Virus record (IMG/VR): IMGVR_UViG_3300023313_000004
Coordinates: 1 to 64,000 of that record
Direction: 5' to 3' (one strand)
Source of the DNA: a virus
Length of the DNA stretch: 64,000 nucleotides
Below the pieces are notes generated by a model. That model made no database searches and was not told where the DNA came from. It saw nothing but the letters and a program-made list of their open reading frames with translations. Shown here in pieces: positions 1 through 13,225 of this stretch (position 1 is its first letter; every line of letters begins with the position of its first letter). A program made the translations under genes and the position numbers.

Positions 1-62
1 ACCTTTATACCATGCATAATTAACATCGTAGGAAAGAGAAATTTCTTTATTCCTTGTAGCAT
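1..62 (-). CDS. 5' end of a cassette-borne hypothetical protein (runs off the window edge)
   Basis: AGGAGA RBS then ATG at 62, reading MLQGIKKFLFPTMLIMHGIK..., open to position 1; lies just inside attC 89-147. Confidence 0.55.
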   Translation of the reverse strand, partial: MLQGIKKFLFPTMLIMHGIK

Positions 63-88
63 ACGTCTCTCCTATATTTTATGCTTCA

Positions 89-147
89 GTATAACAATTT
101 CATCCAATGGACTACGCTTCGCTTGCCTCTCATGCAAGCCGTTAGGC
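89..147 (+). mobile_element. attC: attC site (59 bp), integron cassette recombination site
   Basis: GTATAAC-AATTT-CATCCAAT...-GTTAGGC; R''/R' boxes, imperfect palindrome, same layout as the neighbouring sites. Confidence 0.8.
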
Positions 148-149
148 TT

Positions 150-350
150 CTAAAAAGCCCTTAATAGCTTATGGTATTTTTGAACATCCTCTTTCAATTT
201 CCATTGGGAATCCCTAACATCATGGAAGGCGTAGTATTCCATGTCTTCTATACAGTTTGCAAAGCCATCTTGGATGTCTTGATATTGCCTCTTAGCTAAA
301 CAACCGTCTGGCAGTCCTTCTACAATGTCTTTTAATGCCCTTGTTTTCAT
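150..350 (-). CDS. cassette-borne hypothetical protein
   Basis: 66-aa ORF with AAGGAG RBS, filling the space between attC 89-147 and attC 373-432. Confidence 0.7.
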   Translation of the reverse strand: MKTRALKDIVEGLPDGCLAKRQYQDIQDGFANCIEDMEYYAFHDVRDSQWKLKEDVQKYHKLLRAF

Positions 351-372
351 GTAAATTCTCCTTTACTTTCAA

Positions 373-432
373 GCCTAACAATTAAATCAAGCAGACCTTC
401 GTTCCTCGGCTGCTTATTCTGTGCCGTTAGGT
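373..432 (+). mobile_element. attC: attC site (60 bp)
   Basis: GCCTAAC AATTA AATCAAGC ...GCTTATT CTGTGCC GTTAGGT: 8-nt L'' with the extra C pairs with 7-nt L'; canonical top-strand architecture. Confidence 0.9.
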
Positions 433-774
433 GTTTAATTCTATCGTGTAAAATATATCCGCTATTGCAGGGGCATTCAGTTGCTCTTGATTGTTAGTGC
501 AGAAAATAAACATCTGAGTATTATCCGTAATAATCCGAGTAACTGCCTTTAAATTCTCTAAGGGGATTTCCCCCTCTACTAGCACTACACTTGCCGATGT
601 ATTTATCAGCGTTAGCTCAAATCTGTTATCTTCTAAAATCTGCTCCATGCTGGCATGAAGGCATTTCCCTTCGGCTTCCGCTAGTTGTTGCGCTAGCAGG
701 GTCTTGCCGCATCCTTGTTGCCCTATGATAAGTAAGGCTTTGCCCTGTTGTTTAATCATTTGTAGTAAAGTCAT
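427..774 (-). CDS. cassette-borne small P-loop NTPase-like protein
   Basis: Walker A GQQGCGKT, hydrophobic strand VVLVE as a Walker B candidate; AAGGAG RBS; stop codon lies in the attC R' box. Confidence 0.65.
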   Translation of the reverse strand: MTLLQMIKQQGKALLIIGQQGCGKTLLAQQLAEAEGKCLHASMEQILEDNRFELTLINTSASVVLVEGEIPLENLKAVTRIITDNTQMFIFCTNNQEQLNAPAIADIFYTIELNT

Positions 775-804
775 TTCATTCTCCTTAAATCCGTCTAGCT
801 ACAC

Positions 805-863
805 ACCTAACAATTTCATCAATCAGACTTCGCTACGCTCGCTGATTATTCGTGCCGTTATAA
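805..863 (+). mobile_element. attC: attC site (59 bp)
   Basis: ACCTAAC AATTT CATCAATC ...GATTATT CGTGCC GTTATAA. Confidence 0.9.
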
Positions 864-866
864 ACA

Positions 867-1046
867 TTACTGATTATGCCAAATCACAATGTCTGCTCTG
901 CACATAAATACACACCATGCTTTTCTTAATCTCCACAGGATGCCAGTCCTGCCTATGGGTCTAGCTAATACCCAGCCGCCCTTAGTTTCAGATAAACAAT
1001 CCCAATTTTTGATTTCCTCTGCTGTAAATTCGCTTACACCTTTCAT
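867..1046 (-). CDS. cassette-borne hypothetical phage protein
   Basis: GGAG RBS before ATG at 1046 (MKGVSEF...WVLARPIG...RLRKAWCVF); fills cassette 857-1073. Confidence 0.7.
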   Translation of the reverse strand: MKGVSEFTAEEIKNWDCLSETKGGWVLARPIGRTGILWRLRKAWCVFMCRADIVIWHNQ

Positions 1047-1066
1047 TTTATCTCCGTTAGCCATGC

Positions 1067-1121
1067 TTATAACAATCGCATCAAGAGGACTCTTCGAGCC
1101 TCTTACGCAGTGCCGTTAGCT
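1067..1121 (+). mobile_element. attC: attC site (55 bp)
   Basis: TTATAAC AATCG CATCAAGA GGACTCTTCGAGCC TCTTACG CAGTGCC GTTAGCT. Confidence 0.88.
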
Positions 1122-1214
1122 TTTTAATAATCTTTCACTGCAAGCTTGTACTACAGGTATAGCAACAGTGTCCCCAATCAAGTCATATAATTTAGGTTTT
1201 TCAATATTTATCAT
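1116..1214 (-). pseudogene. 32-aa remnant resembling the C-terminus (motif X) of a C5 DNA methyltransferase
   Basis: MINIEKPKLYDLIGDTVAIPVVQACSERLLKS*, similar to the Y..IGN.V.IPV motif X; ends in the attC R' box. Confidence 0.45.
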
Positions 1215-1219
1215 GTATA

Positions 1220-1519
1220 TTACTCCTTGGGGCAAAGCATATCATTAAGTTGAACTGCCTCTTGCGCTGCAATACCTATTTGTTTTCGCATACACACATG
1301 AATAGCTGAAACAACCCTGCGCTTTTCTTTCATGCTCAAGACCGAGCGGTCATGCCCTGTTAATTTTATGTACGATGTGCCACTAGCTGTCCAAATAGAT
1401 ATGCTTGGATTAGCTTTAAGCACAAAGCAATACTCATTTTGAACCCATAGCTTAGGATTGTCTTCTATAGCTTTAGCTAACTGCTCTATATCATCCCCAA
1501 TCTTATTCATAAACCACAT
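1220..1519 (-). CDS. hypothetical protein (decayed cassette)
   Basis: ORF track 1220..1555; AAGGAG RBS favours the ATG at 1519; half attC at its 5' end. Confidence 0.65.
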   Translation of the reverse strand: MWFMNKIGDDIEQLAKAIEDNPKLWVQNEYCFVLKANPSISIWTASGTSYIKLTGHDRSVLSMKEKRRVVSAIHVCMRKQIGIAAQEAVQLNDMLCPKE

Positions 1520-1537
1520 AGCCCATCTCCTTATTTT

Positions 1538-1559
1538 GCCTAACAATTTCATCAATCAG
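1538..1559 (+). mobile_element. truncated attC (R''-L'' half only)
   Basis: GCCTAACAATTTCATCAATCAG, nearly identical to the left half of attC 805-863; right half missing. Confidence 0.7.
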
Positions 1560-1578
1560 TAATCGTGGGGGGGTTTTT

Positions 1579-2583
1579 TCATTTAGGTAACTGGAGACGT
1601 ATCTCTTCCGCCAGTAGCTCCGCTAGCCTTGGGGGTACTGCATTCCCCACCATTTTATACCCAGCCAATACATTAGTGTATTTAAACTCAAAATCGTCAG
1701 GAAAAGTTTGTATCCTCGCACATTCCCGTACAGATAACCTTCTGTAAAGATGCTCCGCGCCCTTTTGAAACACATGGGCATCCTTTCCTACCCTTGGCAT
1801 AGGTGGTGCCTGTGGGTGTAAAGGTACTTGCCTCCCCCCTGCTTGTATAGTGAAGGATGGTTCTGCCCAAGACCTAACCCTATTTCTTGACATGAAGATA
1901 GGAGACCACCCTGACACCAGATACTCATGGTTTAGGGTTGAGGGCTGTGCCCTTATAGAGGGGGTGCTTGAAGGAGCTGGGCAGGCACTCCCTTCTAGGT
2001 CAGATATAGCATCTTGCAGGGTTAAGGATCTTTCTTTGTGGGTAGGGGCAGGAAAAACAAAAGTCGTCCCTAAATCCTCGCGCACCCCCACGAAAAAGAC
2101 TCTTTTTCTTGATTGGGGCACTCCATAGTCTTTTGCATCTAAGAGCTTAAAGGATAACCTGTACCCACACCCTCGAAGAAGCACTTTGATACATTCTAGG
2201 GCCTCGCTATTCCTATTGCTTAACATCCCCGATACATTCTCAGCTAAGAAAAACTTGGGTTGCTTCTCCTTAATCACTTTGATGAAATCGAAGAATAACT
2301 GACCTCTTTTATCGTCCAGCCCTCGTAAAGCCCCTGCCTCACTCCAGCTTTGGCAAGGTGGTCCTCCTATAACACCATCACAAGAGGGTATCTCCTCTGG
2401 GCATATAGACGTGATGCTTTTTGTATTGAGGGTTGTGCCCTTATGATTATGCCTAAAGGTATCTGCTATAGTCTTATCATTTTCATTCGCCCAGATAATA
2501 TCAAACCCAGCATTTCTAAACCCTAGGTCAAGCCCCCCTGCCCCAGAGAACAAGGACACCACTCTTAATAACTCTTTTTCCAT
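1579..2583 (-). CDS. DNA cytosine-C5 methyltransferase, M.HaeIII family (probably GGCC)
   Basis: FSGAGG, GGPPCQSWSEAG, ENV, QSRKR, IFMSRNRVRSW.EP.FTIQA.GRQ..LHPQAP target-recognition region, RRLSVRECARIQTFPD, GNAVPP; co-linear with M.HaeIII. Confidence 0.95.
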   Translation of the reverse strand: MEKELLRVVSLFSGAGGLDLGFRNAGFDIIWANENDKTIADTFRHNHKGTTLNTKSITSICPEEIPSCDGVIGGPPCQSWSEAGALRGLDDKRGQLFFDFIKVIKEKQPKFFLAENVSGMLSNRNSEALECIKVLLRGCGYRLSFKLLDAKDYGVPQSRKRVFFVGVREDLGTTFVFPAPTHKERSLTLQDAISDLEGSACPAPSSTPSIRAQPSTLNHEYLVSGWSPIFMSRNRVRSWAEPSFTIQAGGRQVPLHPQAPPMPRVGKDAHVFQKGAEHLYRRLSVRECARIQTFPDDFEFKYTNVLAGYKMVGNAVPPRLAELLAEEIRLQLPK

Positions 2584-2775
2584 AGTGCCTCCAAAAGGTA
2601 CGATACTACTACTGCTACAACTACTCTACGGGTCGTGCCTGTTGAGTCAGCACCTCGTTAGCCTTTTTTAGGCTCTCCAGCTCCAACTCCAGTTTCTCAA
2701 CCCTGTCTGCATAGGCATTTACTAAGCGGGATAGTTCACTACCTGTATCCCCTTGCCTCATCAAAGCACTTAGCT

Positions 2776-3555
2776 TCATCTCGAACCCCCCAATAGTACA
2801 TGCTGTAGGATACTGTGGCCTATAACCTCAGCTATTTGAGGCATGATACTATTCCCTATTTGTTTTAGCCTATCTCTGTCCAGTCGCCGCTGTACCCCAT
2901 CATTAACTCTGCGAACACTGGATTTAACCTGTGTGGGTCGCCCCCCTCCGCTGTCTCGCACTTCCACGTTTTCTGATGTAAATTTTTCAGCACCGTTCCA
3001 CGCAAATAGCATTTCTTTACATCTCTTGGTGTCCCACACCCCAAGGACTTCATATTGGGGTGGTTGCTGTCGCTCACGTTGGGGGTAGGCAATAATCCAA
3101 ATCCTTTCTCTTTTGTGTGGTGCACCAACGGAGGAAGCTGGGATAATGTGCCACTCCGCATCATACCCGATTTCCCATAAATCTTTGAGGACTCGTTCAA
3201 GTCCGTTATTTCGCAGGTTTGCCACATTCTCGATAATTGCATATTTAGGTTTAATCTCCTTTATCAGCCTATGGAACTCACTCCATAAACCACTCCTACT
3301 GCCTTCTTTTACTCCTGCGCCTTTACCTGCAACACTTATATCTTGGCAAGGGAAACCCCCACATATAACGTCAGCAGGTGCGCCCACCATCGTTGTTACG
3401 TCCCCATGGATGGGGGTGTGCTCCCAATGTTTTGATAAAACACGTTGGCATTGCTCGTCCACCTCGCAGAACTGTATAGTCTTAAACCCCCCTGTGCGTT
3501 CTAACCCCAGACTGAATCCGCCTATTCCGCTAAATAAATCAAGTACCGTAAGCAT
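2776..3555 (-). CDS. DNA cytosine-C5 methyltransferase, alpha-type chain (motifs I-VIII and X, no motif IX in this frame)
   Basis: LDLFSGIGG, GGFPCQD, ENV, APHKRERIW, RLKQIGNSIMPQ. Confidence 0.92.
   Translation of the reverse strand: MLTVLDLFSGIGGFSLGLERTGGFKTIQFCEVDEQCQRVLSKHWEHTPIHGDVTTMVGAPADVICGGFPCQDISVAGKGAGVKEGSRSGLWSEFHRLIKEIKPKYAIIENVANLRNNGLERVLKDLWEIGYDAEWHIIPASSVGAPHKRERIWIIAYPQRERQQPPQYEVLGVWDTKRCKEMLFAWNGAEKFTSENVEVRDSGGGRPTQVKSSVRRVNDGVQRRLDRDRLKQIGNSIMPQIAEVIGHSILQHVLLGGSR
2865..3242 (-). CDS. nested alternative-frame ORF, putative beta subunit of the C5 methyltransferase (motif IX)
   Basis: Same strand, shifted frame; LLPTPNVSD and RLNPVFAELMMGYSGDWT (motif IX-like); arrangement as in M.EcoHK31I; start codon uncertain. 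Confidence 0.6.
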   Translation of the reverse strand: MQLSRMWQTCEITDLNESSKIYGKSGMMRSGTLSQLPPLVHHTKEKGFGLLPTPNVSDSNHPNMKSLGCGTPRDVKKCYLRGTVLKNLHQKTWKCETAEGGDPHRLNPVFAELMMGYSGDWTEIG

Positions 3556-3588
3556 ATTATATCTCCTGTGTTGTTTCAGACTAATAAT
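3556..3588. repeat. 33-bp direct repeat copy 1 (RBS leader plus decayed attC R'')
   Basis: ATTATATCTCCTGTGTTGTTTCAGACTAATAAT, identical to 4375-4407. Confidence 0.9.
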
Positions 3589-3605
3589 TTCATTGATTCG
3601 TGGGG

Positions 3606-4376
3606 CTAGGCTTCTAGGAAGCAGCCGCAGCCTCCTATGTCGAACTTATCAATATTCAAAACCCCTGTTTCTACTCCCATCCTAAACTCTTTTAATGAGT
3701 AGTAAAAAAGCTTCTTATTTCTTGTAACTCTCAAAAAGGGGTGTCTCTTGCCTAGTGTTTCAAATAACCTCTCTTGCGCTATTTCAGACTCTTTATACTT
3801 CTCAGGGAAGTGTTTTAATACTTTAGCCCACTGCCCTTGACCTGCTTTGACACATGCCCCGTGGCAGTTGTTGTGGCTAAACCCTAATTGATATAGTAAT
3901 GGTATCGGTAATCCATCGTCCTCCACTATCTTCAACATATCTTTTTTGCTTAGATAAGGTTCTTCGCATAATGGGGCTTCTACCTTGTGTGTCACATGCT
4001 TCCTATGCGTCTCTAACCTGTGGCTCTCTGTCCAATCAATACCAAGATATATTGTAGGGCACTCTCCACCCTCGGCATCCAACCACTTAGCAAACACATC
4101 ACTTTTTAGCGTGGTTGAGCAGTGTGCCACCCTAGAGTTCCCTGCGTATTTTTTGTCCTCAAACACCTCCCATATACCTCGCCCATCACTAATCTTTATA
4201 AGGGGTACACCCAACACTTTCGCTGCTGAGTCTATGAAAGAATACAGGTCGGGGTGTTCTCCCTTAGTGTCTGTAAAGACTAAAACTGTATTCTCTGTGC
4301 CGTGGGCTTCGACTACGCGCTTCGCAGCAACGTAGCTGCCAATACCCCCAGAGAAACTAACTATATGTTTACTCAT
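3606..4376 (-). CDS. PAPS-reductase-like adenine nucleotide alpha hydrolase (PP-loop) family protein
   Basis: VSFSGGIGS PP-loop, FTDT..E, CS..LK, GF.HNNC.G.CVKAG, C-terminal GGCGCF. Confidence 0.8.
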   Translation of the reverse strand: MSKHIVSFSGGIGSYVAAKRVVEAHGTENTVLVFTDTKGEHPDLYSFIDSAAKVLGVPLIKISDGRGIWEVFEDKKYAGNSRVAHCSTTLKSDVFAKWLDAEGGECPTIYLGIDWTESHRLETHRKHVTHKVEAPLCEEPYLSKKDMLKIVEDDGLPIPLLYQLGFSHNNCHGACVKAGQGQWAKVLKHFPEKYKESEIAQERLFETLGKRHPFLRVTRNKKLFYYSLKEFRMGVETGVLNIDKFDIGGCGCFLEA

Positions 4377-4407
4377 TATATCTCCTGTGTTGTTTCAGAC
4401 TAATAAT
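4375..4407. repeat. 33-bp direct repeat copy 2
   Basis: identical to 3556-3588. Confidence 0.9.
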
Positions 4408-4533
4408 CGCTTGTCACGAGCGAAAGCAGGTATGTGTAGTTAAACGCTACGTCCTGCCTAGGGTTATGCGCTTGACTAGCATCCCTTCGCTAATTCACTC
4501 TACAAGCACTACATGGCTAATGCAGCATGTTAA

Positions 4534-4609
4534 GCCTAACAATCTTATCAAGCAGTATAAGTTACTGGTTACGTTATCCAGTGCAGCATTATCGTAGCTG
4601 CCGTTATTC
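4534..4609 (+). mobile_element. degenerate attC-like site
   Basis: GCCTAAC AATCT TATCAAGC ... TGCC GTTATTC; left boxes canonical, L' imperfect. Confidence 0.55.
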
Positions 4610-4945
4610 GACCGAGAACTCCCAATCCATTACACGCTACTGCCAGTTCAAATTGGTAGGCTGCCTTTCAATGCGTAGCACATCACTCGATTTTGTATTT
4701 CTACTGGCTCTTGAAACCTGCCTTTTTGATTATGCTATTAGACAAATAGCACACCCGTAACGGTGGGTGATACCAGTTGTCCGCTATTTATCACGGACTG
4801 ATTTAACCCCATCAGCCGATAAAGGCTACGGTCAAATCTTAGGGTTCGCCACCCATATCTCCCTGCTTGTGCACGTCTACACATATCACACGTCATTTCG
4901 TGTTCATCGTTTAAGCATCGTTGAGAGGCTTAGGGGAGTATTATT
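4610..4945. ncRNA. putative structured non-coding RNA in an ORF-less cassette
   Basis: No credible - strand ORF; tandem hairpins e.g. TGCTATT/AATAGCA, CACCC/GGGTG, GTCCG/CGGAC, CTGAT/ATCAG, ACACG/CGTGT. Confidence 0.35.
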
Positions 4946-4951
4946 TTTTAC

Positions 4952-5004
4952 TTATAACCTGCATAAAGAGGACTCATCGAACCTCTTACGCTGTGCCGTT
5001 ATAT
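4952..5004 (+). mobile_element. degenerate attC, homologous to attC 1067-1121
   Basis: TTATAAC CTG CATAAAGA GGACTCATCGAACC TCTTACG CTGTGCC GTTATAT; shortened spacer, extra C of L'' mutated. Confidence 0.75.
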
Positions 5005-5012
5005 TTCTAAAC

Positions 5013-5225
5013 TTACTGCCTTAACATACCCCTCTGCCTCACTGTCTTAGAAGGGTAAAACAGGCACGAACTACATACCCCTTTACCTGCTATAGCTATT
5101 CTGTGAAGTACCGCTGATTTACCGCGTCTCCACACATTAGGTAATCTAACTAATAGCCTACCTCTATAGCTCCATGATGCAGTGGTGGTAGTCATCCAAT
5201 GCCTCTCATGAGGTAATAATCTCAT
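5013..5225 (-). CDS. hypothetical protein (decayed cassette)
   Basis: 70 aa, AAGGAGG RBS; between attC 4952-5004 and a half site at about 5240. Confidence 0.5.
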   Translation of the reverse strand: MRLLPHERHWMTTTTASWSYRGRLLVRLPNVWRRGKSAVLHRIAIAGKGVCSSCLFYPSKTVRQRGMLRQ

Positions 5226-5234
5226 TCCACCCTC

Positions 5235-5271
5235 CTTCAGTACAACAATGTCCCCCCAACCAGACTTCGCT
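5235..5271 (+). mobile_element. decayed half attC
   Basis: CTTCAGTACAACAAT matches CTTCAGTATAACAAT at attC 89; CAGACTTCGCT matches attC 805. Confidence 0.5.
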
Positions 5272-5615
5272 TATAGGGGGTATTCAGCTCTCTTCTCAAA
5301 CCCTTCAGACACTAACAACTCAGATAGTGTTTTCACTCTATCTTGTAAGAGCACCGTAGCTATCCAACGACCATACTTCCCTGATTTCTCAGTTAGGATT
5401 GTAACTTCCTTGCCTTCTATCAAGTCTATAACCCTGTTCTTAGCCAGAATACCATGCTTACGTTCCGCCTCAGTCTTTGGTCGCCAAGTCTCTGGGGTGT
5501 CTATCCCCCTAAGCCTAAACCGTATTGCCGCAGTCATATGAAACCCTAGGTCTACCTTTGCATCAAACGTATCCCCATCTACCACTCTTGTAACCAATAC
5601 TCTATACCTATACAT
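5271..5615 (-). CDS. thermonuclease (staphylococcal nuclease-like)
   Basis: RVVDGDT, RLRGIDTPE, GKYGRWIA; start MYRY after GGAGG. Confidence 0.9.
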   Translation of the reverse strand: MYRYRVLVTRVVDGDTFDAKVDLGFHMTAAIRFRLRGIDTPETWRPKTEAERKHGILAKNRVIDLIEGKEVTILTEKSGKYGRWIATVLLQDRVKTLSELLVSEGFEKRAEYPL

Positions 5616-5834
5616 CCCTCTACCTCCTGTATGCAATAACAACTCTTAATATCTCTTCAGCGTATCTAACCGCCCCATCTCTTCCAACATCCCAACATTC
5701 TGCCTCTTATTCCTGTCCACCTTCATCTGGAGGGTGTACCACCTAGTAGTGGCTGCATCTATCTTATGGTCACTCTCTGGGCGGAGTGTATTCCCCTGAC
5801 CCAACTCTTTAGCTGTCATGCCCCAGAACCGTGC

Positions 5835-6038
5835 CTAGCGTAATACTCCTTCGACCTTGCCAAGGACAGTCTCCTGAGCTCTATCAGCAGTTTGTGCTTC
5901 TCTATCATTAACGCTGTCACCTTCATAACCCTTACCCTTGTTACTCAATTCTCTTAATTCCCTTTCCAGAAGGGTAATCTTACGCTCATATTGCGCTATC
6001 TTCCCTAGAAGTACAGCCCTTTCCTCTACTACCCTCAT
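5835..6038 (-). CDS. hypothetical coiled-coil protein
   Basis: GGAGG RBS, 67 aa. Confidence 0.5.
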   Translation of the reverse strand: MRVVEERAVLLGKIAQYERKITLLERELRELSNKGKGYEGDSVNDREAQTADRAQETVLGKVEGVLR

Positions 6039-6052
6039 AACCCCAAACCCTC

Positions 6053-6343
6053 CTAAAACTGCCTAATAATATATGTGCCCACCTCAGGCACTGGTATCAC
6101 CTGTGTCCACAGCTCCAAGTCCCCAAGAGACGCGATAGCATCATAATCCCTAATAAAAGCCTCTAACGTATCCTCTCTATACTCACAACAAATAGAGACA
6201 CCATCAAACTCCTGCCCCTTACCTTCTTCCTCTTCCGTCAGGTACTCAAACAATGCCCTTCGCCCCTCAACACTGAAAGACTCCTCTCTGTCCATATCCC
6301 TAAACCACTGCACAAACATGCTCTCTGTCAACTCTATATACAT
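6053..6343 (-). CDS. hypothetical phage protein
   Basis: acidic 96 aa with F...F....R...FS.EG..ALFEYL and ICCEY.E pattern; AAGGAGG RBS. Confidence 0.7.
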   Translation of the reverse strand: MYIELTESMFVQWFRDMDREESFSVEGRRALFEYLTEEEEGKGQEFDGVSICCEYREDTLEAFIRDYDAIASLGDLELWTQVIPVPEVGTYIIRQF

Positions 6344-6376
6344 ACCCTAACCTCCTTTTCTTATTGTCATATACCG

Positions 6377-6586
6377 TTATATTTCTAAGCTGTCTTGTTC
6401 TTCTTCACTTAATGCTAGGAACCTGTCTATCATCTTATAAAACTTCTGCCCGACCCTCTCTCTTGGCTCAAAGTTCTTTTTCACAGGGTGCGGTGGTGTC
6501 ATCCTGTTTCTTGAATACTCAAACATCCACCCTTCATACTCATAGAAGGTAGGCATAGATATATGTATTAGGTTAAATTCACTCAT
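6377..6586 (-). CDS. hypothetical protein
   Basis: ATGA overlap with upstream gene; ends in CCGTTATATTTCTAA, the same 15-mer as the R' end of attC 4952-5004. Confidence 0.6.
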   Translation of the reverse strand: MSEFNLIHISMPTFYEYEGWMFEYSRNRMTPPHPVKKNFEPRERVGQKFYKMIDRFLALSEEEQDSLEI

Positions 6587-6795
6587 TGCACCTCCTTAAT
6601 ATAAACCCATAACGGGGAGTATTTACTAGTGTAATTTTTACTTGTCTTGTAATAAAGCCTTAAATGCCTGCCACTGGTCTTACCCGATTTCATGTATTTA
6701 TCTGCTTGAATAAGAGCACTCTCAAAAGCTCTATCCACAAAGAAACGTACGCCACCTCCGTTCATATCCACTATTTTACATTTTTGTTCTGACAT
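6583..6795 (-). CDS. hypothetical protein
   Basis: AGGAGG RBS; L''-like remnant ATTTCATCAATCAG at 6808-6821. Confidence 0.6.
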   Translation of the reverse strand: MSEQKCKIVDMNGGGVRFFVDRAFESALIQADKYMKSGKTSGRHLRLYYKTSKNYTSKYSPLWVYIKEVQ

Positions 6796-6817
6796 ACACC
6801 CTCCTATATTTCATCAA

Positions 6818-7021
6818 TCAGGCCTGACTTACCTTGCCAGTACATGCATTCACATCGTGTAGCAGCTCCCCAGTCCCAAAAGGGCTGAATATCTGAGCCC
6901 CACACTTTGGACAACCTCGGCTGGTTCTACACTCCATCTTGAAATGTTCGCATTCAGTCACATACCCGTTGCGTGTATCAATAATATCAGTACCACATTT
7001 TCCGCAGGAAAAACTACTCAT
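6818..7021 (-). CDS. small Cys-rich (zinc-ribbon) hypothetical protein
   Basis: CGKCG and CPKCG motifs. Confidence 0.55.
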   Translation of the reverse strand: MSSFSCGKCGTDIIDTRNGYVTECEHFKMECRTSRGCPKCGAQIFSPFGTGELLHDVNACTGKVSQA

Positions 7022-7331
7022 CCTCGCCCCCCAAAACACCCAAGCAGTCCTTCAGCACATGCCCCAACAAACTCTCTGTATTGGCTAACACAGCGCAGAT
7101 ACGCACACCCTCTTGATGATGCCCCTGCCCACACATCTCCACCCACTGCAAATACTTCCTGACAATCAACAACTCTTGGTCTGCATCCTCAAAAGGCAAA
7201 AACAAAAACGCCTCCGTCTCACTGATGCACACCTCAGGTTCTAACTCCCCACTCAACCGCACAGTGAAGTCAGGGTACAACCACTTAGCCAAGATGACCT
7301 GCTCCTGCAATGTAGTCCCTTCTAAAACCAT
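7014..7331 (-). CDS. hypothetical protein, first gene after the promoter at 7385
   Basis: GGAGGG RBS before ATG 7331. Confidence 0.6.
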   Translation of the reverse strand: MVLEGTTLQEQVILAKWLYPDFTVRLSGELEPEVCISETEAFLFLPFEDADQELLIVRKYLQWVEMCGQGHHQEGVRICAVLANTESLLGHVLKDCLGVLGGEDE

Positions 7332-7356
7332 ATACCCTCCGTCACCACTAAGAATA

Positions 7357-7385
7357 ATACTACTCCTTAGTGATACACTTGTCAA
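7357..7385 (-). promoter_or_regulatory. sigma70-type promoter driving the accessory/cassette region
   Basis: TTGACA-N17-TAGTAT, AT-rich upstream. Confidence 0.75.
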
Positions 7386-7691
7386 CATAATAAATAAAAC
7401 CCCAAGAAAATCCCCCAGTATTTTTTTGTATTGCCAGCACAGCGCACCCAAACACTATCTGATTTCTGGTATTGCCCTGCCTATAACTACCCTATATTAA
7501 GATATGCCCTAGAAACTTTTTCACGGTGTTTTTGCAAAGTTCCTGAGTAAGAATGGCTAAATACTCCCATTGTTGGTTTTTGAAAAAAGAGTATTTAGAT
7601 GACTATTTCTACTTTTTGCCCTTAAGCACCCTTTTTTGCCCTTAAATAAAAATATACCAACACTCCCCCTGCTTGGTCATAACCGCCCAAC

Positions 7692-7714
7692 ACCCCCATG
7701 AACTTAAGTGCATA
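7692..7714. repeat. near-palindromic motif ACCCCCATGAACTTAAGTGCATA
   Basis: identical 23-mer at 59512-59534; 20-bp inverted copy at 10946-10965. Confidence 0.85.
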
Positions 7715-8430
7715 CCCCCTTACACAACACTTCCGCCCCTGCTGACTTAACCACCCTAACTGCCCAATATATATAGCCTTATATGAAAATATTACTAAAA
7801 ATACCCCATGCATTTACGGTACTATAACCAAAAACGAGAGCCAAAACGCCCCCCCAAATGGAAGCCTAGAGGGGGTGGGGGTTAGCGGCTCAAATTATTT
7901 TTCATCGGGGAAATCCAGAAAAACCCCGATAAAAACCCCATATGCCATTCCGAAATAGACGGCGGAGTTCCAACCTGTGATGCTATCTAGTGCCAGCAGT
8001 GGAATAAGAATAGCGAACCACATTATAATCAGGAAGCCTATAGTGCAGGTTACAGGGGCTTGGTTGTCGTTATGTGTTACACCTTACCCCCCTGCAAGCT
8101 TGGCTTGTAAGCATGAAGCATAAGCCCTTGATTATAATACATAAAACCCTTCGCGTGTGTTGTCATTATATCGCCTCCTATGGCTATGTTGTCTCTAATA
8201 TCCAGCGGCATAGCGTACAGGCAGCGGCTATAAAGCTGGACTTAGAATGTGTTATTGATTTATTCTTGCTATGTTATTGCTATGTTATTAACTGTCCTGC
8301 TGTGTTACTGAATGTTGTTTATTGTTTCTATTTCCGTGTTACATTTACTCTTATTATTCTATTGTTGTTTATCTATATTATTATACTAATCGCCCCCTAA
8401 TCCTTTTTCATATCATTTATATTGTGGGTT

Positions 8431-8458
8431 ATTCTAAGCCCTTCTTTACACTTGTCAA
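8431..8458 (-). promoter_or_regulatory. sigma70-type promoter
   Basis: TTGACA-N16-TAGAAT with the shared TTGACAAGTG -35 context. Confidence 0.6.
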
Positions 8459-8476
8459 CATTTATTATTTTGTGTA

Positions 8477-10189
8477 TCAATGCCTATGCATAACATAAGT
8501 ATAGTTACCGATAGCGGGTGCTATCCACTGCGTATAATACGCCCCTCGCAGGGGTAAGGGTCTTAAATTCCTTGTATGCGTATATTCTATTTCTTGTCTT
8601 AATAAAACGCGGCGCGTTCTCTCTGCATTGTTTATAGTAGTGATTGCTTCTAATTCTTTTTTATATTTTAAGTTCGCCGCGCTCAATGCTTGGACTTGAT
8701 AGAATGCTTTCGTTATGCAATCGTCACATATATTAGCGTTATCTGACTCTCGCAACTCGTCAATATCAACATACTGGCAACACTCCGAACACTCCCCTAT
8801 CCCCTCATTCTCTGCACAATCCTCATCACAATAATAGTGCCCGTTTTGTGCTTCTATGCTATCGCAAGTATGAATAGGGTCACAACATGATGAGCAGTGC
8901 CCTACCCCCTCGTCCTCAGCACATTCAGAACTACAATACGGCACCTCATCAGGGCTAACAACTTCTACACTATCTTGACTTATCATATCGTCACAATGCC
9001 CGCAGGGGTATATATCGTCTTGCGCCGCACAATAATGTGAGCAATAGTAAGAAGTATGGCTGCTTCCCGCGTGACTATGCGCGTCATCTATTGCTATAGT
9101 CTCTTCGCAGTTATCACAATGAACGTAATCATTAGAACAATTTTCACAAACAGGGTCGCCGCCTGCGTTGTAGCCTTGGGTGTCCTCGTCACACCTATCG
9201 CCACAATCTGCACATTCGCCCCCGAACCATTGCCCCGTTGTCACGCTCGCTACCTTTGCATCTATATTACATGCCGGGGTACTTAGTGTTATCCCCCCGT
9301 CCTCAGCACAATTCAGAGAATCCAACCAAGGGTATTGATTAGCCCCGTCCAGCGGCTCGGCTAAGTGATGAACTAGCGCTGGCAGCTCTTCACTATTATG
9401 ACAACCCGCACCCGTTTTATCGTAACAGTACCAGCCATGTTTTTCTGCTAAGTTTTTCGTTAGCTCCCGCGTGTCTGGAGTTGAGGGGTACGCCCTATCA
9501 ACTAAGTAAGATTTGTTGCCTTCCATATCTTCAACCGCCCACAAAAAAGCGCGGACTGCGGCCACATTCTCCCCTTTTGTGATAGCATATGGCAGGTCGC
9601 TCCAGATTAAAGTATATGCTCCCTCTGCTGCTGAGGGAGTGGGGTTTATTAAAGGTTTATCGTCTGTAATCGCTAACGTCTCGTTTAGCTCTGCCCACCT
9701 ATGATACGTATTATCTAAAGCATCATCTATGCTCTCTTTGTTCTCTAATGCAGGCCCTTCCATACAACTCCCGCTCCGATACCCGTAATGGCGCGGCAAG
9801 ATTTGACCTTGTAAACTTTGATATATTTTGGGGGTGGTGCTGAACCCCTCATTTTGGGCTAACGGGTGATGTTTTAAAAGAGCGACAATAAACTTATGCA
9901 GGTCTGACTCTGATAACTTTATACTATCAGCAAGCCACCTTTTTATTAGTTTATTAGCCTTCATTTTTTTTGTTCTAGTACATGACTCTTGTTTTTGTGA
10001 GTATGCTAAGTGTGTTCTTTCTGTACTACTGAATCTTGCGCTGTCTGGCATATTACAAAAAATATCGGGCATGCCTACGCTCCCGTCTTTGGGCAGTAGC
10101 ATGTTTATATGCTTTATAGCTTCATGTGCTAACGCCTCTCTAAATACTCTTATTGCTTTTTTTGTTGTATCATCTTGTGATAAACACAT
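8477..10189 (-). CDS. Cys-rich multi-zinc-ribbon phage protein
   Basis: SCM...RAFLW...DRAY...PWLDSL domain followed by many CxxC/CxxxC pairs. Confidence 0.75.
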   Translation of the reverse strand: MCLSQDDTTKKAIRVFREALAHEAIKHINMLLPKDGSVGMPDIFCNMPDSARFSSTERTHLAYSQKQESCTRTKKMKANKLIKRWLADSIKLSESDLHKFIVALLKHHPLAQNEGFSTTPKIYQSLQGQILPRHYGYRSGSCMEGPALENKESIDDALDNTYHRWAELNETLAITDDKPLINPTPSAAEGAYTLIWSDLPYAITKGENVAAVRAFLWAVEDMEGNKSYLVDRAYPSTPDTRELTKNLAEKHGWYCYDKTGAGCHNSEELPALVHHLAEPLDGANQYPWLDSLNCAEDGGITLSTPACNIDAKVASVTTGQWFGGECADCGDRCDEDTQGYNAGGDPVCENCSNDYVHCDNCEETIAIDDAHSHAGSSHTSYYCSHYCAAQDDIYPCGHCDDMISQDSVEVVSPDEVPYCSSECAEDEGVGHCSSCCDPIHTCDSIEAQNGHYYCDEDCAENEGIGECSECCQYVDIDELRESDNANICDDCITKAFYQVQALSAANLKYKKELEAITTINNAERTRRVLLRQEIEYTHTRNLRPLPLRGAYYTQWIAPAIGNYTYVMHRH

Positions 10190-10972: not shown

Positions 10973-13225
10973 CTACCCTTCTATGGATTTAGCTGCGGAC
11001 AATGCTTGTACACTATCTGGTATGCTCTGAGGGGTTATCCCTGCCTCTAGCCATAGGTCTCCCCTCGTAATCAAGCCATATAAAACTCCTGCCATTGAGT
11101 CAGCCACATCTTTAGAGTTATGTACTACTGCCCCGTTAGCTAAGCAGAAGTTCTCGTTAGGGTATGCTCCTAGGTCATACACAGGGATAGGCACGGCGTG
11201 GCTCACCACCTCTACTTGAGTAATGGTAATAGTGTCTCCCCTCTCTGTTGGTAGGTGGGGGTTTACATCCCTAGAGATTATTGTGTCTCCCCCTACTAAA
11301 GAGTCCGTCCTTGCCCAGCCCCTAGAGACGAGGACTTTATGCTCCCCTGTAAGCTCCATGACTACGCCCTCGGAGGAGTAAACCCTGTATGTCTCAGTAG
11401 TTTCTCTAGTTACCCTCGGATGTAGTACCTCTTGTGGTACGAATACCTCTAGGTCTTCATTGTACCCCTGCACTACATACCTTTCTCCCCCTGTATGCCC
11501 TAGAGCCATGTCTGCTATAGTCCTAGTGACACCACTACTATCTTTAATAAGGGTTGAGCCTATTAAACTACCGTGAGGAGGGTGGTCTACCTTACCTTTC
11601 TTTGTGTCTAGTTCTAGTTGTACCAGCTCTGTACAAAGCCTCTCGTGGTAGGGCATCTCTATTCTACCATCATACAAGGCCTGCTTAACAACGTCATAGG
11701 GCGCGGTTGTTCTATCTATAGACTGTACCCCTGCCCTAAAATTCTTAGTCCTTAGGATTTGGATAGTGTCTGCTGACTGATATGTATCTAGTGACACCCA
11801 CCCGATAGGTATCCCTAGCTGGTCTCTTAATGCGTATATCAGCTCCCTTATCTTCCAGAACTGTATTTCTCCCCCTAGAGGTGGTGCTATCTCTAAGGTC
11901 ATATCTATTACAAATTTGGGGAGTATCTCAAACGTACCACCTCTATCTACTTTAACAAACCTCTCTATGTGCCCCATAGCAAAGCCTGCGCTATCCCCCG
12001 TGAGAGCTAAATCCATATGAATCCAGCGTTTAGCTGTGGGGTTTAGGAGGTTCAAGGTACTAAGTTCTGCTGAAGTACTAACAAAATCAACCTCTACATT
12101 CGATGCTATAGACTCTAAGGTGCAGGCATCAAATATCTTCGTGCTATCTAAGATGAAGGGGTGCAGAGCCATGGTGGCTTTGCCAGCAATATCTCTTAGG
12201 CTACTCATCATATCATTTTGGAAATCTTTTCTGAAGTCCTCTGGGATACGGTCATACAGCTCTTCCTCCCCCTCAGGGATAACAAAGTCTGGCTCTTCTA
12301 TTCTGGGTGCTCTAGTTAAGTCTCCTGTGAATATCGTAAACCACCCAGACACAAACTCTTGGGGTTTAATATCCCACAACCTTTTAGAGTATATAAATAT
12401 ACTGGGGTCATTTACTGCCTCTTTCTCTTTGCATTCAGTGAAGTCTCCGGGGTAATGCTTAGAGGAAACTAGGCATAGTACTCCCGGAAGGTTTCCTTTC
12501 TGCATAAACCTAGATTTCCTTCTCCTAGCTATAGAGTTATATATCTCTACTGCTTGGTCGAAGGTGTCTCCCGTTCTGCTCTGCTTGGATTTCTCTGTGA
12601 TGCTAAAGAAGTTAATCTCATCTATCACACCTCCAAATACATTCTGCCCTATCGTGGCGGTAGAGGAGGCTGATACGGGGCGCACATACACCCTATTAGG
12701 GAATTGTAGTTCTGACTCTATATCTTTATTGTAAGGGTAGTGGTTCTTAAAATAAGGGGAGTTATCTATGAGAGCCTTGAACCTCGCATAGTCTACCTGC
12801 TTGGCCACCTTCTCCGTTACCGATTGGAATATGAATACTATCTCTGAGGCAGGGTCTAACCCGTATTCTGCTTGGGGGTCTACTAAGCAGCTTAATAGGT
12901 ACAGTTGGTATCCTGTGGTGGCAAGGGCTGCTGTGGACTTACCTACCCCAATAGCCCCTGTAAAGACTCCTTCATCGTACTTGCCTGTATTAAGTTCTAT
13001 CATGTCAGTCATGACAGAGGGGTATAGTGCCCCTTCATAATTAAAAAGGTTAGGGTCTGTAATAAATGTTTCAAAAGATACAGGTATATCTCTGTACTTA
13101 CCTAAAGTATGAAGGGGTGCTGCATCCCCCTTCATGGCTGCCTGTAAGGCCTTATATATCTGAGCCCTAGCTTCTGGGTCAGGGAGTCTCGCTACCTCTG
13201 GGAATAGACCCTCAATGTTCTTCAT
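10973..13225 (-). CDS. terL: terminase large subunit, intein-containing
   Basis: Walker A GAIGVGKS, Walker B GVIDE, RNase H-type nuclease HMDLALTGD...D.YQS...DHPPHG/SKDVADS. Confidence 0.9.
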   Translation of the reverse strand: MKNIEGLFPEVARLPDPEARAQIYKALQAAMKGDAAPLHTLGKYRDIPVSFETFITDPNLFNYEGALYPSVMTDMIELNTGKYDEGVFTGAIGVGKSTAALATTGYQLYLLSCLVDPQAEYGLDPASEIVFIFQSVTEKVAKQVDYARFKALIDNSPYFKNHYPYNKDIESELQFPNRVYVRPVSASSTATIGQNVFGGVIDEINFFSITEKSKQSRTGDTFDQAVEIYNSIARRRKSRFMQKGNLPGVLCLVSSKHYPGDFTECKEKEAVNDPSIFIYSKRLWDIKPQEFVSGWFTIFTGDLTRAPRIEEPDFVIPEGEEELYDRIPEDFRKDFQNDMMSSLRDIAGKATMALHPFILDSTKIFDACTLESIASNVEVDFVSTSAELSTLNLLNPTAKRWIHMDLALTGDSAGFAMGHIERFVKVDRGGTFEILPKFVIDMTLEIAPPLGGEIQFWKIRELIYALRDQLGIPIGWVSLDTYQSADTIQILRTKNFRAGVQSIDRTTAPYDVVKQALYDGRIEMPYHERLCTELVQLELDTKKGKVDHPPHGSLIGSTLIKDSSGVTRTIADMALGHTGGERYVVQGYNEDLEVFVPQEVLHPRVTRETTETYRVYSSEGVVMELTGEHKVLVSRGWARTDSLVGGDTIISRDVNPHLPTERGDTITITQVEVVSHAVPIPVYDLGAYPNENFCLANGAVVHNSKDVADSMAGVLYGLITRGDLWLEAGITPQSIPDSVQALSAAKSIEG
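11117..11569 (-). mobile_element. mini-intein (151 aa, Ser1) in TerL
   Basis: SLIGST start, block B LTGEHKVL, block F VYDL, HN/S end; splits DHPPHG|SKD; no homing endonuclease. Confidence 0.88.

Follow-up and report, generated by a model that had tools for sequence, protein, structure and literature searches.

A reversed, integrase-less attC cassette array in a phage genome, with cassettes and attC sites shared with unrelated phages

The attC array described here occupies positions 62-1559 of a 64,000-nucleotide stretch of viral DNA (the window), which corresponds to bases 1-64000 of the IMG/VR record IMGVR_UViG_3300023313_000004 (G000). This record is 75,572 bp long, is rated 100% complete in IMG/VR and comes from a microbial mat metagenome. 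Nearly all of its genes for products longer than 120 amino acids (aa) are on the - strand, and its GC skew is monotonic. The attC sites of the array have their top strand on the + strand, and the six open reading frames (ORFs) of its cassettes are on the - strand. The array is reversed and integrase-less, and its cassettes and attC sites are shared with unrelated phages. Integrons are seen as bacterial devices, in which the choice of attC strand makes promoterless genes face the cassette promoter (Pc).

The attC sites, including a second cluster farther into the window, are as follows, with scores from two covariance models, R1 and R2.

89-147, + strand: attC1; R'' GTATAAC, R' GTTAGGC; R1 67.7 bits, R2 34.3 bits; also supported by alignment A2 and by folding
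373-432, + strand: attC2; R'' GCCTAAC; bulged C at AAT[C]AAGCAG; R1 61.1 bits, R2 46.7 bits; folds
805-863, + strand: attC3; R'' ACCTAAC; R1 75.5 bits
1067-1121, + strand: attC4; R'' TTATAAC; R1 55.9 bits, R2 34.2 bits
1538-1560, + strand: truncated attC, R''-L'' only; 21/21 identical to the attC3 left arm (family D1), with the L'-R' half gone
4534-5004, + strand: second attC cluster; weak site 4534-4609 (R1 14 bits, R2 14.8 bits) and site 4952-5004 (R1 42 bits, R2 19.9 bits)

Each full site spans 54-60 nt and is arranged as R''(RYYYAAC)-AATT-L''-loop-L'-GCC-R'(GTTRRRY). The R and L boxes are paired and an extrahelical base is present on the R''-L'' arm, which is the architecture of attC sites. 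The four full sites and one half site in 89-1560 constitute a cluster of attC sites lacking integron-integrases (CALIN; Cury et al. 2016, PMC4889954), taken here to mean at least two attCs on one strand within 4 kb and no nearby integrase. Alignment A2 combines five window sites with 12 sites of a second phage, G001 (n = 17). In this alignment, pairing reaches 87.6% over the R and L helices (15 pairs) and 92.6% in the L box, where 4 pairs show compensatory changes; shuffles and slid registers all fall well short of these values. At the sequence level, the likeness to the aadA1 attC and to bacterial attCs reaches into the loop, CGCTTCGC. The attC1 site appears to be a hybrid that joins a left arm of the CATCCAATGGAC type to a right arm of the CCTCTCATGCAAGCC type known from G001. 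Because its L'' and L' arms belong to two different attC types, the L box of attC1 is unpaired and its hairpin is weak.

The cassette ORFs, called by a scan of the circularised record, are listed next, with their ribosome binding sites (RBSs).

G000 75223..62 (window part 1-62), - strand: ORF0, 94 aa; crosses the circular junction; RBS AGGAGA at 68-73; pre-ATG context ATAGGAGAGACGT
150-350, - strand: ORF1, 66 aa; pre-ATG context AAAGGAGAATTTAC; RBS AAAGGAGAA; no family match
427-774, - strand: ORF2, 115 aa; pre-ATG context TTAAGGAGAATGAA; TAA stop within the attC2 R'
867-1046, - strand: ORF3, 59 aa (65 aa if the start is at 1064); pre-ATG context ACGGAGATAAA; RBS GGAGA
1116-1214, - strand: ORF4b, 32 aa; pre-ATG context CCAAGGAGTAATATAC; RBS AAGGAG; TAA stop within the attC4 R'; no family match
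1220-1519, - strand: ORF4a, 99 aa; pre-ATG context ATAAGGAGATGGGCT; RBS AAGGAG

A canonical cassette carries its ORF on the attC top strand, running towards the attC; here, 6/6 ORFs are on the opposite strand. All six have a GGAG-type RBS 5-10 nt before the ATG, and their start codons are 2-30 nt from R''. The stop codons are inside R' at 427-429 and 1116-1118 (the TTA of G|TTA), and 2-3 nt beyond R' at 150-152 and 867-869. ORF1, for example, starts 22 nt from the attC2 R'' and stops 2 nt past the attC1 R'. Cassette stops lie at or before the crossover, and no gene borrows its stop from the next cassette. The original prediction for this locus, that every cassette ORF is on the - strand with an (AA)GGAG RBS next to R'' and a stop in or beside the R' box (as at 427), thus holds for the six ORFs. 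ORF4a and ORF4b form a two-gene cassette (1116-1519) in which ORF4b is the second gene.

Several comparisons place the attC top strand on the + strand. The extra C is on the 5' arm of the + strand in 17/17 aligned sites. The aadA1 attC (plasmid R100, aadA1 coding strand) reads GTCTAAC AATTC GTT[C]AAGCCGAC...GGCTTAAC TCAAGC GTTAGAT, and the window + strand has the same polarity, for example, GCCTAAC AATTA AAT[C]AAGCAGAC...CTGCTTATT CTGTGCC GTTAGGT. In 16/17 sites, the aadA1 attC aligns better to the + strand than to the reverse complement. Folding of the - strand leaves the bulges on its 3' arm, which is also where the aadA1 bottom strand has them. Model R2 was built only from aadA1 and 17 canonical bacterial attCs, which were found with a degenerate pattern in bacterial genomes and kept only if the upstream ORF ends in R''. 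This model puts all window sites on the + strand (46.7, 37.7, 34.3, 34.2, 19.9 and 14.8 bits), and no reverse-strand match was found at the window sites with filters off and E values up to 10. Model R1 assigns 55.9-75.5 bits to the four full sites, also on the + strand. In bacterial integrons with a true IntI, the top strand given by the model points away from the divergent intI in 4/4 cases. The extra C of L'' had been the basis on which the top strand was originally placed on +, with the proviso that a covariance model might instead choose -; aadA1 homology, the bulge, the folding of both strands and the bacteria-only model all agree on +.

An integron array is built by a G|TT crossover, so the R'' of each cassette pairs with the six bases at that cassette's own start, across its ORF. 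In the phage arrays, R'' matches R' across the ORF at 7/7 positions in 14/15 cases (3/3 in the window, 10/11 in G001 and 1/1 in a third phage contig, L060). The window pairs with 7/7 matches are attC2 R'' with attC1 R', attC3 R'' with attC2 R', and attC4 R'' with attC3 R'. When R'' is instead compared with the in-place R' of its own hairpin, 1-7 of the 7 positions match, and all seven match in just 3/18 sites. The pairing across the ORF indicates site-specific assembly, although it does not decide the strand; as a strand test, R''/R' complementarity was rejected because it is symmetric. Each unit of the form TTRRRY, opposite-strand ORF, RBS, R''-L''-loop-L'-G is a true, once-circular cassette.

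The same attC family occurs in three other phages. G001 (L005; IMGVR_UViG_3300013233_000191) is 38.9 kb long and encodes a terminase, a portal protein, a RecE-like gene and NinB, and it has no backbone gene in common with G000. Its 12 attCs, at 5467-9033, are of the types seen in G000, and one of them has a core that is 55/55 identical (blastn) to window positions 806-860 in attC3. In G001, too, the cassette genes are antisense to the attC top strand. One G001 cassette, at 6472-6675 (-) between the attCs at 6223-6285 and 6713-6771, contains a convergent gene pair. In this pair, one ORF (KTSC-like by eye) is on the attC top strand and faces the reversed ORF, and it is the sole top-strand gene noticed there. 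L060 encodes a T7-type head-tail adaptor, and its C5-methyltransferase gene is an intact reversed cassette with 86.7% DNA identity over 760 nt to window positions 2825-3584. In L060, the left junction is a bare G|TTAGGC without a hairpin. L059 encodes a terminase, and its PAPS-reductase-like gene starts beside an R''. G001, L060 and L059 are different phages with the same attC family, and an identical attC and two cassette genes are shared.

DNA contigs from the source sample leave the window sequence at or inside attCs, at positions 398, 1119, 4563 and 5009. The contig that leaves at 1119 continues as the sequence that follows an attC in L060. The mat thus contains several coexisting attC-bearing phages or cassette variants. 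A search of metagenomes with the exact type A/B attC pattern gave one match, in L007 (Ga0265294_10035961), which has 62% GC. L007 has two attC-like sites in 2900-3750, with genes whose direction is ambiguous by length and apparently opposite-strand by RBS; at one of these sites, the bulged base of the 5' arm is G, not C. Four other candidates (L002, L003, L058 and L063) were rejected as chance pattern matches that are not arrays.

The products of the cassette ORFs are small. ORF0 has no Pfam or PHROG match, and the gene beyond it is thyX (PF02511). ORF2 is a short P-loop/AAA-like protein with a weak PF00004 match (22.9 bits) and 1 metagenomic homologue (45% identity). ORF3 matches phrog_21988 (E = 1e-7). 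ORF4a has 21 remote homologues of 79-98 aa, and its nearest relative (47% identity) is an ordinary, tightly packed gene without an attC in the phage contig IMGVR_UViG_3300013233_000298, a sign that genes of phages may pass into the cassette pool. Viral contigs contained no close relative of ORF2 or ORF4a, and no cassette ORF matches toxin-antitoxin families of Pfam or PHROG; the two-gene cassette 1116-1519 has no family assignment. The search for homologues of the cassette proteins therefore gave phage-type cargo, namely the methyltransferase cassette in L060, a zinc-ribbon cassette in G001, phrog_21988 and the relative of ORF4a. Together with the reversed layout in G001, L060 and L059, this cargo lends real support to the phage-adapted cassette pool of the original prediction. 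Equally, the cassettes would be antisense to Pc in a classical integron, as had been proposed, and they run in the direction of the phage's own genes.

Gene orientation was compared between phage and bacterial arrays, with one model used to find all sites counted. Loci with an open frame ending at R'' were called same, and loci with an ORF starting beside R'' on the other strand were called opposite. Among the bacterial loci (n = 32), 21 are same, 3 opposite and 8 unclear. Among the loci of four unrelated phages (n = 20), 2 are same, 15 opposite and 3 unclear (Fisher p = 2e-6). A Shine-Dalgarno sequence precedes the opposite-strand start in 16/20 phage cases versus 2/32 bacterial cases (p = 6e-8). 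The ORF rule is crude in GC-rich DNA, so these values are given as counts and not as rates.

A complete integron comprises intI, an adjacent attI and Pc, and this locus has no IntI. A search with TIGR02249 of the whole 75.6-kb record found no integron integrase and no other tyrosine recombinase, and G001 likewise lacks both. A profile of four bacterial IntIs revealed 163 full-length relatives in IMG/VR, of which 80 loci (L079-L158; 46-75% identity) were fetched. Most of these 80 loci have attCs upstream of an intI gene in divergent geometry. Some loci are canonical, among them L101, which has class-1-like attCs. Low-GC loci such as L148, L113 and L118 encode IntI and have reversed cassettes with Shine-Dalgarno sites that read towards intI, and L113 additionally encodes a terminase, a portal protein and a Mu-type transposition protein. 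The original prediction took a host integron as the partner of the array; phage contigs with their own IntI and reversed cassettes are now found as well. L100, L114, L120, L126, L134 and L153 show the Treponema-type geometry, with attCs located downstream of intI and on its strand.

Three other explanations deserve weighing. If the strand had been miscalled, the top strand would truly be - and these would be ordinary cassettes whose genes run towards their attC. The near-palindromic nature of attC sites lends this idea some appeal, as does the canonical look of the coding strand, where the stop is in an RYYYAAC box and the gene start follows a GTTRRRY box, and the symmetry of R-box complementarity leaves the strand undecided. 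However, the position of the bulged base (17/17), the aadA1 alignment (16/17) and the bacteria-only model, with 34-47 bits on + and nothing on -, all argue otherwise, and the top strand of that same model is canonical relative to ORFs and intI in bacteria. An error in strand would thus be very surprising. It is also rather improbable that the units are the phage's own hairpin repeats that merely resemble attC and serve as regulatory or recombination modules, like the PeSL repeats of T4-type phages, with no integron integrase acting on them. Such repeats would explain why neither this phage nor G001 has an IntI, why the hairpins are thermodynamically weak, why a leader, TGAAACAA, is conserved between R'' and RBS in many units, and why exact type A/B sites are in no bacterial genome. 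Yet the sites are homologous in sequence to aadA1 and bacterial attCs, the loop included, and the 7/7 match of partner R boxes across the ORF is the signature of a G|TT crossover in a circular cassette. The same units, moreover, occur in unrelated phages without a common recombinase, and IntI1 recombined 5/6 of the phage attCs that Qi et al. tested (2023, PMC9892861).

Perhaps the array is instead a piece of a host chromosomal integron with reversed cassettes that was captured passively, with no phage-specific pool. Reversed cassettes are known as a minority in bacterial arrays (toxin-antitoxin cassettes), 3/24 classifiable bacterial cases above are opposite, and the near-identity of the attCs here is usual for a single host array. 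Passive capture nevertheless seems unlikely: all six ORFs here and 15/17 classifiable cases in four unrelated phages are reversed, always along the phage's own genes. In addition, the cargo is phage-type (C5 methyltransferase, PAPS-reductase-like, PHROG members) with no toxin-antitoxin match, ORF4a is nearest to an ordinary phage gene, and phage contigs that encode IntI have the same layout.

At the array end, 5' of the top strand, three phages have in common a non-coding stretch of about 65 nt that ends in ...GTATTACCTAG|TTA.

G000 75214: GTATTACCTAG-TTA junction (stretch 75150-75220)
G001 9468: GTATTACCTAG-TTA junction (about 9468-9540)
L060 12106: GTATTACCTAG-TTA junction (about 12106-12180)

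The gene next to this stretch differs, being thyX in G000, ninB in G001 and another gene in L060. The stretch stands where attI would, but the end-junction motif is absent next to viral intI genes, so it is not called attI. The sequence GTTATATTTCTAA, which consists of an R' box and the first cassette bases, occurs three times (G000 75214, and window 4998 and 6374), at the stop ends of three ORFs. The two ends of G000 carry a 127-bp repeat, in which window positions 1-127 equal G000 75446-75572 and the right end lies inside attC1 (89-147). This repeat may be an assembler overlap of a circular contig and not a true virion terminal repeat. It was read as the mark of a circular or terminally redundant assembly, so the sequence to the left of base 1 continues at 75445. 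A search of the whole window with Rfam at the gathering score gave no match, and blastn of 60-1570 against plasmids and phages gave only chance matches.

Beyond 1560, the array extends to about 7040 as decayed ex-cassettes, which include the following features.

2776-3555, - strand: C5 DNA methyltransferase (PF00145), former cassette; mutated R''-L'' at about 3562-3600, homologous to the intact L060 site (A5)
5013-5225, - strand: ORF, 70 aa; RBS GAAGGAGG; R''-L'' remnant at about 5240-5270
6372-6388: R' remnant
6818-7039, - strand: zinc-ribbon ORF, former cassette; adjoins the R''-L'' half site at 6797-6821

The zinc-ribbon ORF is 87% identical over 63 residues (blastp), and 91% over the first 58 codons, to a G001 cassette ORF that has intact attCs. 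The dN/dS ratio is 0.03 for this pair and 0.18 for the C5 methyltransferases of the window and L060. These ratios in the - frame imply purifying selection and, with the homologues of ORF2, ORF3 and ORF4a, show that the ORFs are real genes. The same leader of about 35 nt, ATTATATCTCCTGTGTTGTTTCAGACTAATAAT (RBS, TGAAACAA leader and mutated R''), occurs at 3556-3590 and 4377-4411, ahead of the C5 methyltransferase gene in one case and of the PAPS-reductase-like gene in the other. In G001 and L060, too, many cassette genes are preceded by the TGAAACAA leader. At the clearest half sites (1538-1560, about 3562-3600, about 5240-5270 and 6797-6821), R''-L'' is kept by the RBS of the next gene and L'-R' is missing. 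According to Loot et al. (bioRxiv 10.1101/2022.09.11.507474), replication slippage readily removes folded attCs, and the half sites would fit such a loss.

Positions 62-1559 are best explained as the best-preserved part of a reversed, integrase-less cassette array (CALIN) in a 75.6-kb phage, an array that would probably undergo exchange by IntI in trans, read-through expression and fixation, and draw on a shared cassette pool. The strand that codes for the cassette genes is the attC bottom strand, the one that recombines in bacterial integrons, so the array runs with the other phage genes. It would be translated from phage read-through transcripts, with each cassette supplying its own Shine-Dalgarno site. 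Cassettes might be gained, lost and exchanged by an IntI acting in trans, provided by the host or by a co-resident phage or prophage, and would circulate as one pool among the unrelated phages of a habitat. Useful cassettes could then be fixed when the L'-R' half is deleted, leaving R''-L'' beside domesticated genes out to about 7040; these genes would include methyltransferases, the PAPS-reductase-like gene and a nuclease. The reversal itself might arise from capture bias combined with selection. Capture by a phage array would require its bottom strands to fold, and in a genome that is transcribed, and probably replicated, in one direction, this folding might be limited to the non-template or lagging-template strand. 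After capture, only cassettes whose gene reads in the phage sense direction would be kept.

A number of observations weigh against this account. Only four viral contigs are in this attC family, and the exact type A/B attC pattern has no match in 185,579 species genomes. No partner IntI with the attC family of the window is present among the 80 viral IntI loci. The phage hairpins are weak, at -2.5 to -8.2 kcal/mol with non-significant z-scores, whereas bacterial ones are at about -18 to -22 kcal/mol. Homology is the sole basis for naming the recombining strand, and the orientation counts come from a simple ORF rule that is unreliable in GC-rich contigs and leaves 8/32 bacterial and 3/20 phage loci unclear. 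The proposed cause of the reversal is a low-confidence guess without direct support. One tiny metatranscriptome (contigs, unstranded) has pieces at 3942-4169, 5400-5550 and 7031-7170 and none on 1-3900. The array was originally thought to be read from a promoter at 7385. A promoter-like TTGACA-17-TAGTAT sequence is indeed present at 7385-7357 (-), about 25 nt upstream of an ORF at 7014-7331, with a 10/12 consensus match. Its role in reading the array is doubtful: a consensus scan found 13 such sites versus 18 expected from shuffles, and the sequence is 5.8 kb from the array, with terminator-like hairpins between. Promoters within cassettes are weak 9/12 matches only, none of which is convincing.

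More tentatively, an integron version of their own may operate in tailed phages, with the gene on the recombining bottom strand and the arrays in one-direction operons, some with IntI downstream and many as arrays only. Where intI is downstream of the array, it could be reached by read-through, and array-only phages would use an IntI in trans. Ordinary genes, such as those for methyltransferases, might join the pool and leave it by half-hairpin loss. If the reversal is consistent, the same recombination chemistry would serve another expression logic, that of operon read-through with one RBS per gene. The phages of a habitat would then exchange small early genes in cassette form, among them genes for DNA methyltransferases, which can protect phage DNA from restriction. 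Such arrays would also provide natural material on the birth of cassettes from ordinary genes and on their refixation; where cassettes come from is a question that the field has yet to settle. Tools that assume that cassette genes are on the attC strand would mis-describe such arrays.

The array shares with classical arrays (class 1 aadA1 on R100, and sedentary chromosomal integrons) the R'', L'', L' and R' boxes, the bulged base, the site length of 54-60 nt, the G|TT crossover signature, and tightly packed cassettes with one or two small ORFs each. It differs from them in its reversed polarity, the Shine-Dalgarno site for each gene, the lack of an IntI and of a recognisable attI or Pc, and its AT-rich, weak hairpins. 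Reversed cassettes of sedentary chromosomal integrons (PMC13108822) likewise have an ORF antisense to the attC top strand, but these are a minority, have their own promoters and encode toxin-antitoxin pairs. In contrast, the present array is wholly reversed and has no toxin-antitoxin match, and the 2-30 nt from R'' to the start codon leave little room for a promoter.

Integrons with an inverted integrase, of the Treponema denticola type (PMC4889954), resemble L148, L113 and L118 in that intI and the cassette genes are co-directed. In these three loci, however, intI and attC keep the normal divergent arrangement and the ORFs alone are flipped, so that genes read towards intI; the window itself has no intI. 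The study of attG insertion and domestication by Loot et al. (bioRxiv 10.1101/2022.09.11.507474) also describes cassettes outside the integron platform and attC loss by slippage. That work concerns canonical cassettes in E. coli chromosomes, with nothing on phages or reversed polarity.

CALINs and some integrases in phages have already been published (Qi et al. 2023, PMC9892861), and a full-text literature search found no paper on the reversal of phage cassette genes relative to attC. The published phage CALINs are like the present array in that several attCs share a strand at spacings below 4 kb, IntI is absent, the carrier is a tailed phage and the cargo includes methyltransferases. Their cassettes are described as all oriented one way, "typical of bacterial arrays", and attC-reversed genes are not reported. 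In the array described here, all genes are antisense to the attC top strand, and the layout, identical attCs and cassettes are common to unrelated phages. This reversed polarity in several unrelated phages points to a phage-specific form of integron gene swapping.

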